Below, in pieces: positions 16,607 to 24,227 of a stretch of DNA of 32,000 bases; position 1 is the first letter of the stretch, and each line of letters starts with the position of its first letter. A program made the position numbers and the translations under genes. The notes under the pieces were generated by a model. The model was not told the DNA's origin. It saw only the letters and a program-made list of their open reading frames with translations, and did not search any database. Location of the stretch: the NCBI RefSeq assembly GCF_024205705.1, contig NZ_CP073115.1, positions 485,313 to 517,312 of the forward strand. Reading direction: 5' to 3'. The stretch is from Neisseria subflava. Its GTDB lineage: Bacteria; Pseudomonadota; Gammaproteobacteria; Burkholderiales; Neisseriaceae.

Positions 16607-16685
16607 ATATATTGCGTTCCATCAGGGGCGCATATTTTTAATTCTTGTAAAGCCCCTTAACTCTAGCCAGTGAAGGGGCTTAATC

Positions 16686-16916
16686 ATGTTTATTTTCTAT
16701 ACCGTCAATCCCGAACCCTTATCTTTCCCGAAAGCATACATCTTGAAAGTGTTCAGGGATAAAGACAACGAATCCCAATGCATCAAAACAGTTTGTTTCC
16801 CTATCCGCAATCCTACTTTGAAACAAAAAACCGAAAACGCCGCAAACGAATGCGGAAGACTTTTAGTAAGGGGATTGATGAATGAGGAATGCAACCGTGA
16901 AAGCCTTGGAAGATAA
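16686..16916 (+). CDS. Hypothetical small phage ORF upstream of and overlapping the Rep start
   Basis: 76-aa ORF with the SD-like gaagggg 7 nt upstream of the ATG. There is no recognisable motif. The region could instead be a non-coding origin or regulatory region. Confidence 0.25.
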   Translation: MFIFYTVNPEPLSFPKAYILKVFRDKDNESQCIKTVCFPIRNPTLKQKTENAANECGRLLVRGLMNEECNRESLGR

Positions 16917-18239
16917 AGCCGTGGCGGTGGTCGCGGATATGGCGGACGCGTCAGCGGACGGCAAGGCTGCGACAACCGCCGAAGGCTGCCCCCTAGGCTA
17001 ATAGGGGGGGAGCAAAATAAAACCCATAATCCGAAGGGTGCGGAAAAATCGGATAACCAAGACTTTGAGTTTGAATATTTCAGCCATTTCGTATCCGATG
17101 GAAAAGGCAAATTCATCGAAATACCTTTAAGACGTGGCAGGGATGACGGTGCATTTATTGACCAAATCACTTTTACAATTCATGAAGACAGTTTGCCTAA
17201 AGTAACAGGTAAAGGATTGGTGTCAGATACAGAATTTGTTGTGAAGTATAGCGAGCTTTTAGAAGAAATTTTAGGTTTTGGCATTACCCAAAAACTACCG
17301 TTTAAAGGCAAGTTTTTCTATAAAAGCTGTTACCAACTTGGTCCGGATAACGTCGAATATGGCAAGGTTCATTACGGCGGTCAGCGTGAAACAATGTTGG
17401 TTGAATTGAATGGTACAGGTTGTCAGGCTGCTATACCCGGTTGGGAAAACCGACTGTATGAGTTTTTAAGTAAGTGCATACGTCCAAAAATTACCCGTGT
17501 TGATGTGGCCCATGATTTTTTTAACGGCGAATACACACCCGATCAGGCATTACTTGATCATGACAACGGCCATTTTGACGTTCATAACATGAGGCCAAAA
17601 AGCGAATGCCGAGGTACTGCATGGCGCAATGATGACGGTAGCGGCAAAACCTTTTATGTAGGTAAACGCGGAAATTCTAAATTTACCCGTGTTTATGAGA
17701 AAGGAAAACAATTTGGCGATGTCAACAGTCCATGGGTCAGGTTTGAAACTGAATTTCGGGCAGGCGATATAGAAATCCCCTTAGATGTTTTGCTTTATCC
17801 CGGTTCGTATCTTGGTGGTGCTTACCCGATATGTTCGGCGATATTCAAAACAGAAGCTAAGCGGATGGATGCCAAGACAGAAACAGTAAATTTATCTTTC
17901 GATCACAAACTGTTCCATGCGCGTAATCAGGTTGGAAAAATGGTTAATTTCCTTCGCGATATAGGATGGGATGATACAAAAATCGTCGATGAACTTGTAA
18001 AAGGCATTGAAGGTTATCCCAAAGGTTTACAACCTGAACAATACGATTGTAGAGATCAGACACAAAAGATTCAGTATATCCACGAAGAGCAAAAAGCAAT
18101 TGATGATTTGAATATGCAAACATTACTTGATGATTTGCTTGATGAGAAAGAAACCGCATTTCCACAAGACAGGGAAAAACAACACATTAAAGACATCGAA
18201 CTCGAAGAGAAAATTATTTCAAATTTTTTAAACAAGTAA
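16882..18239 (+). CDS. Phage replication initiation protein (RstA/Rep_trans-like), reading frame interrupted at a C5 tract (16989-16993)
   Basis: The track ORF 17193-18239 starts at TTG, but its frame is open back to 16917 with no ATG/GTG/TTG. That upstream part encodes protein-like sequence, including GAFIDQITFTIHE, which resembles the IDWLxFT motif found near the N-terminus of RstA-type initiators. A 39-codon ORF with a good SD (aagggga-N7-ATG at 16882) ends at the TAA at 16999. One extra C, or a -1 slip in CCCCC, fuses the two into a protein of about 450 aa. Confidence 0.7.
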
Positions 18240-18251
18240 AGGAAATTCAAA

Positions 18252-18563
18252 ATGTTTGAGCAAAGCCAAGTAACCACGTATTCAGCAACCCTGTTGGGTG
18301 CAAAACAATTCAAAGGCGAAATTGACGGTAACAAAATCGATTCTTGCACAGTTTTGGTAGCCAGCCCCATGCCTTCAAACGGCAATTCCGTAGGTTTTAC
18401 CGCGGCAAGCATGAAGTTTGGCGATAGCCATAATTTCGACAAGCTGAAAAATCTTAAATTCCCATGCGCGGTTGATGTAACCGTCGCCATGGAATCAACA
18501 GGTAAAGGCCTAGTTCCTAAATTGCTTGATTTCCAAGTTAAAGGCTCAGCGCCCAAAGCCTAA
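18252..18563 (+). CDS. Phage protein, possibly the ssDNA-binding protein (assigned by position only)
   Basis: 103-aa soluble ORF directly after Rep, as in other inoviruses. I recognise no motif. Confidence 0.35.
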   Translation: MFEQSQVTTYSATLLGAKQFKGEIDGNKIDSCTVLVASPMPSNGNSVGFTAASMKFGDSHNFDKLKNLKFPCAVDVTVAMESTGKGLVPKLLDFQVKGSAPKA

Positions 18564-18576
18564 GAAAGGCTGAATC

Positions 18577-18780
18577 ATGAGTAAGTATCAGCAAAAATTT
18601 ATTGTTCAAGAACTCGAAAATCATGAATTCATCTATCCCGATCCATTCGGTGATATTGGTTTCACTCCTAATATTAAATCTGCCGGTCAATATGAAAGCT
18701 ATGAAGATGCTTTCAATTCGGCGATTGAAGAAATCGGCGGCGAATTTTTAATTTTCAGTTTTTATACAAAAGAAGACTAA
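18577..18780 (+). CDS. Hypothetical small acidic phage protein
   Basis: 67-aa ORF, tightly spaced after the preceding gene. Confidence 0.4.
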   Translation: MSKYQQKFIVQELENHEFIYPDPFGDIGFTPNIKSAGQYESYEDAFNSAIEEIGGEFLIFSFYTKED

Positions 18781-18865
18781 GTTTAAGAGGCTCGGCGGGC
18801 GGTCTCTAAAACCTTCACATAGCCCGCAAACACATTTTTTTAAACATTTCGTAAAGGAAAACATC

Positions 18866-22819: not shown

Positions 22820-22885
22820 GAGATATTTATTTAATTGTTGATGTAGCCTAAGCGGAATCAACGGTTAAATAAATATCAACGGGGT

Positions 22886-22905
22886 GCGGGAACTCCCGCC
22901 TTTTT
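22886..22905 (+). terminator. Terminator after the phage morphogenesis operon
   Basis: gcggg-aact-cccgc followed by c-ttttt. Confidence 0.55.
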
Positions 22906-23116
22906 GAAATTGGGTAAATTAAATTGAAACCTGTAAATCGTTTTAATTAAGGCGGTTTACAGGTTTTTGTTTAAGCGCAAAACAAAAGCCTAGACGGTTT
23001 AGACAGTATAACGACCAGAGTTGAAAACTGAGGAAAAGATATGTCGAACCGTCCAATTACCTTAAAGATTGAATATCATCATAGCCGTATCAGGCTGAAT
23101 AAATAAGGAAAATGAA
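22906..23116 (+). ncRNA. Candidate bridge/seek-type guide RNA region upstream of the IS110-family recombinase (hypothesis)
   Basis: About 210 nt of non-coding DNA between the terminator and the recombinase ATG, containing an 11-bp stem (22927-22937 / 22956-22966) with an 18-nt loop. IS110-group elements are known to encode their guide RNA in the 5' non-coding end. I could not identify a promoter or loops with confidence. Confidence 0.25.
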
Positions 23117-24073
23117 ATGAATGTCATAGGGTTGGACGTATCTAAAGACACGATAGACGCAACATTGATTACAACTAAAGGAAGCAAAGACTATATAAAA
23201 ATATCCAACAATACAGAAGGATTTGAGAATCTGATTAATTGGATAAAAACAAAAAGAATTAGAAAAATTGCCATAAGTATGGAAGCAACAGGCATTTACT
23301 ACGAACAGGCGGCAGAATATTTGAGCGCGCTATATACGATCTTTGTAATTAATCCCTTAAAAATCAAAGAATACGCAAAAAGTCAGTTCAGCAATACCAA
23401 AACAGATAAAGCAGATTCAAAACTTATCGCCGAATTTGCAAACCGACACTTAGACAAACTGACACCGTTTAGGCCGTCTGAAAATCCCATACTCTATAAG
23501 CTGGTTAATCTTCTGCAACAAATAAAAGAACAGCAAAAAGAAACACAAAACAGGTTGCATACCGCAAAAGACATATACATAAAATCAACCCATGAAGCAA
23601 TCATAGAACTACTTGAAGAAAAAATAGATCAGACATCAAAGCGGATAGAAGGCATGATAAAACAGAAAGAAAGTCTAAATATCGAATATCAAAACCTGCA
23701 AACCATACCGGCAATAGGTAAAGAAACCGCAGTGATCCTACTAAGACACCTGACAGATAAAAATTTTGAAACAGCGAATAAATTTGTAGCATTTGCCGGT
23801 CTAAGTCCAAAAATTGAACAATCAGGGACAAGTGTCAATAAAAAAGGCAGATTGAGCCGATACGGACACCGCCAATTAAAACGCGCCTTGTTCATGCCTG
23901 CCCTTGTTGCCTATCGCATGAATGCATTTCCTCAACTTGTCAGAAATTTAGAAGCGGCAAAAAAGCCTAAGATGATAATCATCGTTGCACTAATGCAGAA
24001 ATTGGCAAAAATCGCATTTTATATACACAAGTCTAAAAAGCCGTTTGATAAAGCGCGACATCAGACGGTTTAA
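23117..24073 (+). CDS. IS110-family DEDD recombinase/transposase (Piv/PivNM-like)
   Basis: 318 aa. The N-terminal RuvC-like DEDD region has IGLDVSKDT, ISMEATGIYY, VINPLKIK and TKTDKADSKLIA. The C-terminal domain has IPAIGKETAVILL, FAGLSPKIEQSGTSV and RLSRYGHRQLKRALF. Confidence 0.9.
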   Translation: MNVIGLDVSKDTIDATLITTKGSKDYIKISNNTEGFENLINWIKTKRIRKIAISMEATGIYYEQAAEYLSALYTIFVINPLKIKEYAKSQFSNTKTDKADSKLIAEFANRHLDKLTPFRPSENPILYKLVNLLQQIKEQQKETQNRLHTAKDIYIKSTHEAIIELLEEKIDQTSKRIEGMIKQKESLNIEYQNLQTIPAIGKETAVILLRHLTDKNFETANKFVAFAGLSPKIEQSGTSVNKKGRLSRYGHRQLKRALFMPALVAYRMNAFPQLVRNLEAAKKPKMIIIVALMQKLAKIAFYIHKSKKPFDKARHQTV

Positions 24074-24091
24074 CGAATTTATACAAAACAA

Positions 24092-24117
24092 AACGGCTGT
24101 AAAAACAGCCGTTCTTT
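24092..24117 (+). terminator. Terminator after the recombinase gene
   Basis: aacggctgt-aaaa-acagccgtt followed by ctttg. Confidence 0.55.
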
Positions 24118-24227
24118 GTCGTTTCTGTTGAAAATGCAATAACTAAATATCTATTAAAAACATAAATATAGGAAATTAACTTATTTTAATAATTGACATG
24201 TCAATATATCATCTTTTCCATTTCTGT

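Follow-up and report, generated by a model that had tools for sequence, protein, structure and literature searches.

A bridge-RNA-like element upstream of an IS110-family recombinase gene matches the integration site of an Nf/MDA-type filamentous prophage in Neisseria subflava

How does a filamentous phage come to lie between a host gene and that gene's terminator, at a site lacking the repeat into which its relatives are known to integrate? The question is raised by a 32,000-nucleotide (nt) stretch of Neisseria subflava DNA (contig NZ_CP073115.1, positions 485,313 to 517,312; hereafter the window, to which all coordinates refer), in which an inovirus prophage ending with an IS110-family recombinase gene occupies 16604-24214 on the + strand, both CT cores included, one phage unit being 7609 bp. 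In the literature on Neisseria filamentous phages, the transposase is described as targeting dRS3 repeats, with no mechanism given (PMC7058167). A search of the window bore out the statement of a preliminary description, made from the sequence alone, that no dRS3 (ATTCCC-N8-GGGAAT) stands at either flank; the sole match with two or fewer mismatches lay inside the replication initiator gene (rep), at chance level, and no tRNA or tmRNA that could serve as target was found in the window. We propose that the element is a temperate phage of the Nf/MDA family, integrated by its own IS110-family recombinase, and that a bridge RNA encoded immediately 5' of the recombinase gene most likely guides this enzyme.

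The ends of the prophage were fixed to the base by the circle junction of a related phage genome and by four exact empty sites. The circular genome OR148974.1 (Inovirus D_HF4_79; 7564 bp, human saliva) showed ~93-94% identity over 70% of the query with the same gene order, window 22417-24215 aligning to its positions 765-2563 and window 16604-18948 to 2561-4906; its circle joins window 24215 to 16604, and the prophage ends overlap by three bases, CTT. The reconstructed empty site, the 24-mer TTCAGACGAC-CT-TTTCCATTTCTG, was present exactly and at the same locus in N. flavescens CNF, CD-NF3, N. subflava C2011009653 and Neisseria sp. HMSC078H04, where window 16606 is fused directly to 24213 and the flanks are 95-96% identical. 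CT(T) stands at both prophage junctions, and the insert measures 7609 bp. The boundaries given in the preliminary description (16607-24209) lay within a few bases of these ends, and the comparison with related genomes that it had suggested yielded the four empty alleles, in which hemN and the hairpin that it took for the hemN terminator are indeed unseparated. The features at the two junctions are as follows.

16578-16605, no strand: inverted repeat of the DNA uptake sequence (DUS), AGGTCGTCTGAA-AATT-TTCAGACGACCT, making up the left half of the chromosomal target; it is also the terminator hairpin that follows hemN
24193-24214, + strand: phage right end, with a -35 box TTGACA (24193-24198), the left donor sequence ATATCAT (24206-24212) and the attR core CT (24213-24214)
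24215-24219, + strand: TTTCC, which completes the chromosomal target on the right and lies 9 nt before the hemN stop codon
24228-25649, - strand: hemN, oxygen-independent coproporphyrinogen III oxidase, the flanking host gene, its earlier identification upheld by Radical_SAM and HemN_C matches

The attL core CT (16604-16605) forms the last two bases of the DUS hairpin, which together with its T-run is of the terminator type.

The recombinase aligned over its full length with those of ISCro4 (9t56, E 5e-51) and IS621 (8wt6, E 3e-49), and residues D7, E56, D97, D100 and S236/S239 were invariant among the phage recombinase homologues. For IS621 recombination, a bridge RNA has been found both necessary and sufficient; it has one loop binding the target and another binding the donor, and in each there are a left and a right guide that include the CT core (PMC11208160). 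The spacer between the zot and recombinase genes is 297 nt long and strongly structured (folding z = -8.5), and over its last 125 nt (22993-23107) it is built like an IS110 bridge RNA.

22926-22966, + strand: long stem-loop just 5' of the guide loops, which may be the first (5') stem-loop of the RNA or else terminate transcription after zot; a corresponding hairpin, differing in sequence, stands in the relatives
22993-23053, + strand: target-binding loop, an 8+4-pair stem around an internal loop, with an inner hairpin at 23019-23029
23065-23107, + strand: donor-binding loop, with an inner hairpin at 23083-23096; its 3' end overlaps the ribosome-binding site of the recombinase gene

On the 5' side of the target-binding loop, the left target guide ACGACC (23011-23016) reproduces the top strand ACGAC-C left of the insertion, thereby covering the first core base only (none is covered in the dRS3 lineage), while the 3' side bears the right target guide GGAAAAG (23032-23038), the reverse complement of the CT+TTTCC that follows on the right. 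In the donor-binding loop, the left guide AUAUCAUC (23073-23080) equals the phage right end ATATCAT-C, and the right guide AAUAAAUAAG (23098-23107) pairs discontinuously with the phage left end CT+TATATATT (CT+TAT.TATT, one interruption), the AUAAG within it matching the phage site ATATCAT-CT-TAT. The RNA is presumably transcribed and bound by the recombinase.

The correspondence between guides and sites was followed across relatives, namely prophages and circular genomes that encode a related recombinase, drawn from GTDB genomes, GenBank phages and IMG/VR. The right target guide is a 7-mer ending in AG at a fixed position directly 5' of the closing stem, and predicts CT and the next five bases of the right flank. 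Across 18 distinct combinations, 86/90 non-core positions matched, non-cognate pairs averaging 2.1/5, and the match sum was reached in 0 of 100,000 permutations. With the IMG/VR loci added, the 43 distinct combinations comprised 35 perfect matches, five with one wobble-compatible mismatch, two with one other mismatch and one parsing artefact (locus L295). The agreement stops abruptly after position +5, and the right flanks predicted include TTTCC, TTTCG, TTTGT, TTTCT, GAAAC, GAAAG, GCTTT, CGTCA, CCCCC, TGCCG, ACGCG and others. The left target guide is a 6-mer at a fixed distance upstream, equal to the five bases left of the core plus C; it matched 6/6 in nine distinct sites and additionally in L023 and L034, and 5/6 in five further sites, a tally that omits L277, L281, L290, L295 and L297, whose left flanks, obtained by automatic left-end-motif detection of attL, are doubtful. 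The left target sequences seen were ACGAC, ACGTC, ACGGC and CTCGC.

Changes in the guides accompany changes in the site. A phage in N. flavescens CD-NF2 (L003), with a recombinase 96% identical to that of the window, lies at another locus, CAAACGTC-CT-TTTCGG, and has the guides ACGUCC and CGAAAAG; its site differs by one change on each side, both of which are compensated in the guides, and it thus appears to represent a natural retargeting. On the donor side, attP was located in circular genomes from the CT+TATATATT motif alone, independently of the guide (linear contigs, which wrapped onto their own attL, were uninformative), and the left donor guide matched attP 7/7 in every such circular genome (6 guide/site rows with five different 7-mers: ATATCAT, ATACCAT, CTATCAT, GTAGTAT and ACACTAT). 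In L016 and L017 (Inovirus D_HF5_49 and D_HF3_8), the right donor guide UACAAG tracks a left end of CT-TGTA. The guide element of these two genomes (L016 1700-1815, L017 1630-1744) seems to be differently wired, the left donor guide coming first and the target guides apparently nested between the donor guides, with the left target guide in a hairpin loop; the two differ by UCGGCC versus UCGACC, which correspond to the two DUS variants.

Two further observations concern individual genomes. One uncultured Neisseria metagenome-assembled genome holds three copies of one phage type at three sites (L005, L007 and L008), each with one mismatch at the last position of the right guide, and the A-runs of the guides differ in length, which may reflect either relaxed targeting or an assembly error in the homopolymer. 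In N. iguanae ATCC 51483 (L022, ~2800-3050), the left junction contains three occurrences of the phage left end CT-TATATATTGCGCTCC within 240 bp, which suggests tandem or aborted integrations.

The shape of the element is conserved independently of its sequence. Fifteen lineages, folded separately, gave the same succession of stem, bulge, stem, internal loop and hairpin with unrelated stem sequences. In a trimmed alignment, 12/12 pairs of the outer stem of the target-binding loop showed double compensatory changes; 95.9% of its cells were paired, compared with 33-47% when the partner was slid, and the covariation score was 0.98 versus at most 0.17. The inner hairpin of this loop was out of register in the trimmed alignment and is not counted among the co-varying pairs, and when RNAalifold was applied to ten divergent sequences aligned with MAFFT, the outer stem alone was recovered. 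Ordinary IS110 elements with recombinases 35-37% identical to that of the phage (from Methylomonas, Undibacterium and others) have the same RNA, starting a few tens of nt inside their left end, and its guides match their own flanks. Since these relatives share the RNA layout, the phage arrangement can be described as the IS110 plan with a phage genome between the donor junction and the RNA.

The same comparison was extended to meningococcal phages by means of 20 Nf1/MDA-type loci, fetched via published Nf1 end primers (PMC7058167). Their junctions read GATTCCCGC-CT-TATATGATGCG and ACATATCAT-CT-(G/A)CGCGGGAAT, which is dRS3. The right guide CGCGUAG pairs with CT-RCGCG, a G-U pair being allowed opposite the variable R, and the left guide UCCCGC equals the six bases left of the core. 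The same RNA element would thus account for the use of dRS3. Integration into dRS3, which was confirmed for the Nf1-type loci and is absent from the N. subflava prophage, is a trait of certain lineages and does not define the family.

Whether this particular copy is still mobile is a separate matter. The C-tract of rep at 16989-16993 has five C in the window versus six in five relatives, and overlapping tblastn segments place Rep residues 1-37 (16882-16992) and 27-452 (16941-18236) in different frames; the initiator recognized in the preliminary description is therefore present, but its reading frame is split by a 1-nt deletion that had been overlooked.

16882-18239, + strand: Rep_trans rolling-circle replication initiator, frame-split (domain match 17193-18239, E 2e-38; N-terminus further upstream)
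16989-17010, no strand: palindrome C5-TAGGCTAATA-G7 inside rep (C6 in relatives)

The difference in the C-tract may stem from an error in sequencing, from slippage of the homopolymer or from a mutation that inactivates the gene, and this copy is probably not able to replicate alone unless the tract slips back. It is possible, if somewhat doubtful, that the copy is a dead, fixed remnant of a long-ago arrival and is now non-mobile chromosomal sequence. In keeping with this, rep is frameshifted, the hemN site is occupied also in Neisseria sp. 27098_8_112, and N. flavescens CD-NF2 holds a deleted remnant there. On the other hand, the site is empty in four close relatives, all phage genes other than rep are open, both phage ends are intact, a 94%-identical circular genome with intact rep (as in the other saliva-virome genomes of the OR148974.1 type) exists, and a single change in a homopolymer might just as well stem from a sequencing error or from slippage that can revert. 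The question bears only on the activity of this copy, not on what the element is. In the CD-NF2 remnant (L009, 10020-10050), only the last 0.5 kb of prophage is left and its left junction is fused mid-recombinase through ACC (equivalent to window 16604 joined to 23702), the full retargeted phage lying elsewhere in that genome. The ~80 nt around the rep palindrome (16960-17050) are nearly invariant at the DNA level, even where the flanking phage sequence has diverged, and the one-base loss of the window falls within this stretch; the palindrome is a candidate cis-acting site, perhaps an origin or a packaging signal.

How the site is chosen could also be explained by the protein alone, the recombinase reading attP and attB directly and the upstream matches being DNA elements such as accessory sites or att-like decoys, although we consider this improbable. 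The guide-like stretches are short (6-8 nt), the RNA is predicted from sequence, and the older literature treats Nf integration as recognition of dRS3 by the transposase (PMC7058167). Yet single-base changes upstream track single-base changes in the flanks across dozens of lineages with nearly identical recombinases, the stems around the guides keep their pairing through double changes, as is the signature of a single-stranded structure, and the protein is homologous over its full length to enzymes whose need for a bridge RNA has been demonstrated (PMC11208160). Several results nevertheless weigh against guidance by a bridge RNA at this locus. No Rfam family was found for the upstream element, gathering and permissive thresholds alike giving chance-level matches only, and a promoter scan of the + strand from 22700 to 24300 found no promoter for the RNA. 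In the donor loop, the inner hairpin is conserved and the closing stem is not clearly so. The UCCCGC match of the dRS3 phages is one base out of register with respect to the other lineages and leaves the core uncovered, a few insertions carry one mismatch to the guide, and the frameshifted rep makes the current mobility of this copy doubtful.

Integration by the host XerCD system at a dif-like site, with the IS110 gene as a passenger insertion sequence, can practically be dismissed: XerCD is commonly used by integrative inoviruses, as in CTXphi, but here a CT core adjoining the recombinase gene defines the ends, every relative has this gene in the same position, the site upstream of the gene changes along with the ends, and the insertion sites are many and lineage-specific instead of one dif locus.

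The insertion sites of the commensal phages are connected with the DUS. The window contains 24 copies of the prevailing AG-DUS AGGCCGTCTGAA in 32 kb and three copies of the rarer variant AGGTCGTCTGAA. The hairpin at hemN is built from the minority AGGTCGTCTGAA, and the guide of this phage matches that variant; the AG-DUS dialect attributed to the host in the preliminary description was recovered, with the correction that the hairpin itself is made of the minority form. Among commensal lineages with a reliable left flank, ~13 of ~17 distinct insertion sites have TTCAGACGAC or TTCAGACGGC at the left (in one of the ~13 as the degenerate TTTAGACGAC). TTCAGACGAC and TTCAGACGGC correspond, in reverse complement, to AGGTCGTCTGAA and AGGCCGTCTGAA, and the guides read ACGACC or ACGGCC accordingly, with a one-base guide mismatch in the DUS-end insertions L240 and L310. 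The leading AG of the 12-mer DUS has the crossover CT as its complement, and most commensal insertions lie exactly at this 'AG' end. Because many of the sites consist of a DUS inverted repeat followed by a T-run, the phages land just past terminators. Among the matches listed, the 17-mer TTCAGACGACCTTTTCC occurred once each in two N. flavescens genomes and at least five to six times in N. sicca and N. mucosa genomes. The notion that the left target guide generally follows the main DUS dialect of the host was dropped, the majority form of this host being AGGCCGTCTGAA and the guide matching the rarer AGGTCGTCTGAA; the guide follows the DUS variant at the site, not necessarily that of the host's majority. 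As a lead only, the guides UAGCCU of an Eikenella prophage (L031) and CAGCCU of a sheep Neisseriaceae prophage (L029) match the ends of AG-eikDUS and AG-simDUS and may target them. The CT complements the AG that distinguishes the AG-type DUS dialects, and species with AT-DUS offer no CT at that position; judging from the published dialect sequences, this would explain why phages of those species use another repeat. Inside the 7.6-kb phage, the only DUS is a single AG-DUS (AGGCCGTCTGAA) at 23471-23482 within the recombinase gene, compared with about one per kb in the host flanks.

We envisage integration by the bridge RNA as follows. The double-stranded circular form would carry attP, ATATCAT-CT-TATATATT, spanned by a promoter at the junction; one internal loop of the RNA would pair with both sides of attP, and the other with both sides of ACGAC-CT-TTTCC, which comprises the end of the DUS hairpin terminator and the first bases of its T-run, just downstream of hemN. 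The strands would then be exchanged at the CT that both sites share, and the prophage would be left with CT on either side. In this arrangement, ~6.4 kb, the whole phage genome, would separate the donor site from the RNA gene, whereas ordinary IS110 elements have a gap of just some tens of bases. At the circle junction, TTGACA of the right end and TATATT of the left end are brought together at a spacing of 18, an 11/12 sigma-70 match across the core that exists in the circle only; the integrated left end has only a 9/12 hybrid match. The -35 box keeps its distance to the core in all relatives, and the junction promoter is predicted to be functional. It would face the rep operon here, in IS621 such a promoter driving the RNA and the recombinase.

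The gene content, assigned by Pfam and PHROG matches at curated thresholds, identifies the host of this recombinase as a phage of a known family. Eleven + strand open reading frames (ORFs) fill the 16.6-24.2 kb interval, a block of low G+C content (0.31-0.44 inside versus ~0.5 outside); besides rep, the features are the following.

16686-16916, + strand: conserved 76-aa (amino acid) ORF of unknown function at the left end, with a hypothetical protein at the same place in OR148974.1; Pfam search without match
18252-18563, + strand: 103-aa phrog_4994 protein of unknown function, its OR148974.1 counterpart annotated 'RstB protein'
18577-18780, + strand: small 67-aa ORF without a family match in Pfam or PHROG
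18866-19084, + strand: major coat protein, 72 aa, Phage_Coat_B (Pfam/PHROG)
19097-19372, + strand: 91-aa ORF with a C-terminal membrane anchor, phrog_12382 (PHROG)
19500-19820, + strand: 106-aa ORF of unknown function, with an annotated counterpart in related genomes
19741-21336, + strand: TspB (Neisseria_TspB, PF05616, E 1.9e-112), adsorption protein of the Neisseria filamentous phage family in the pIII position
21346-21636, + strand: pVI-like minor virion protein, DUF2523 (Pfam/PHROG)
21641-22819, + strand: Zot/pI assembly ATPase (E 7e-53)
23117-24073, + strand: IS110-family recombinase, 318 aa, with DEDD RuvC-like and Tnp domains (PF01548 DEDD_Tnp_IS110, PF02371 Transposase_20)
24092-24113, no strand: hairpin after the recombinase gene, scoring terminator-like on both strands

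The last hairpin may substitute for the hemN terminator, which the insertion displaced by 7.6 kb. Rep, a small coat protein, a pVI-like protein and Zot/pI all lie on one strand, TspB occupies the pIII position, and an IS110-family (PivNM/Irg-like) recombinase stands at the right end with CT at both junctions, which supports the assignment of the element as an Nf/MDA-type inovirus prophage that has an IS110-family recombinase and resides in a commensal of the N. subflava/flavescens group. The preliminary description thus stood in its inovirus layout, with every listed element found on the + strand in the order stated and similar to inovirus proteins, in the IS110-family recombinase closing the block and in the likeness to MDAphi/Nf and Ngo-phi prophages; its 'DUF202' gene next to the locus was not confirmed by Pfam. 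The prophage itself belongs to a known family, of which near-identical phages have already been deposited as unstudied virome genomes.

Nf1/MDA-phi and Nf2-4/Ngo-phi6-9 share its gene set and order (Rep_trans, small ORFs, coat B, TspB, pVI-like, Zot and IS110 recombinase), the CT at both junctions, a similar left end, TATAT(A/G)(T/A)TGCG, and the same RNA element upstream of the recombinase gene. They differ in that their recombinases are 56-57% identical to that of the window, whose target is ACGAC-CT-TTTCC at the end of a DUS hairpin instead of dRS3 and whose host is a commensal with the AG-DUS dialect. OR148974.1 and its sisters (OR148969, OR148975 and others) are closer, with recombinases 97.5% identical and with identical RNA guides and attP, but these are circular, unintegrated and unstudied metagenome assemblies with intact rep, and diverge in the segments at 18.9-19.5, 20.2-20.6 and 21.1-22.4 kb. 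With IS621, ISCro4 and the IS110 group, the phage has in common a homologous recombinase and an upstream RNA with two internal loops and left and right guides including the CT core; discontinuous pairing of the right donor guide, a sigma-70 promoter rebuilt at the circle junction and repeated palindromic targets are further likenesses to IS621 (PMC11208160). The phage differs from IS621 and ISCro4 in that phage genes, ~6.4 kb of them, stand between its donor junction and its RNA, that the junction promoter faces the phage replication operon and that the mobile unit is a virus, which would also leave the cell in the form of single-stranded DNA. The guides of IS621 are also longer, those of the phages measuring ~6 and 7 nt. 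A recombinase sequence of the Nf1 type is among the ISfinder entries aligned in the supplement of the IS621 study, where the phage context and the targets are not discussed (PMC11208160).

Two other features lie in the neighbouring host sequence. Window 13033-14249 is an insertion sequence with a 335-aa DDE_Tnp_1/DUF772 transposase (IS5-like), absent from the collinear loci of four to five related genomes, in which window 13032 joins 14250. A patch of low G+C content (0.35) at 15501-16100 contains a 127-aa multi-pass membrane ORF (15672-16055, - strand) without a Pfam match, and part of it, 15729-15989, was not aligned in N. subflava C2011009653.

A full-text literature search, with most subscription journals outside its scope, found no paper on a bridge RNA or seekRNA in a filamentous phage, inovirus, prophage or Neisseria, nor did it turn up any report of a phage targeting DUS ends by means of an RNA guide. 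What is new here is a guide of the bridge-RNA type that would explain this site, the other commensal sites and dRS3. We tentatively suggest, as a wider possibility, that Neisseria filamentous phages, including the disease-associated MDA/Nf1, choose their site by a programmable bridge RNA, with guides that have evolved to fit host repeats, namely the 'AG' end of the DUS in commensals and dRS3 in meningococci. If this is true, guide changes of one or two bases move a phage to a new site in nature, a natural IS110 system carries a viral cargo of 6.4 kb, and dRS3 targeting gains the mechanism that has been missing since 2005. Prophage finders have been reported to miss Nf-type prophages of Neisseria (PMC9238386); the guides would allow the ends and the target of every prophage of the Neisseria Nf/MDA family to be predicted exactly. 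The landing of these phages in particular repeats gains base-by-base predictions. Bridge-RNA recombination would be extended from minimal insertion sequences to a complete virus, with multi-kilobase cargo and natural retargeting, and phage integration would be linked to the DNA uptake sequence system of the Neisseriaceae.

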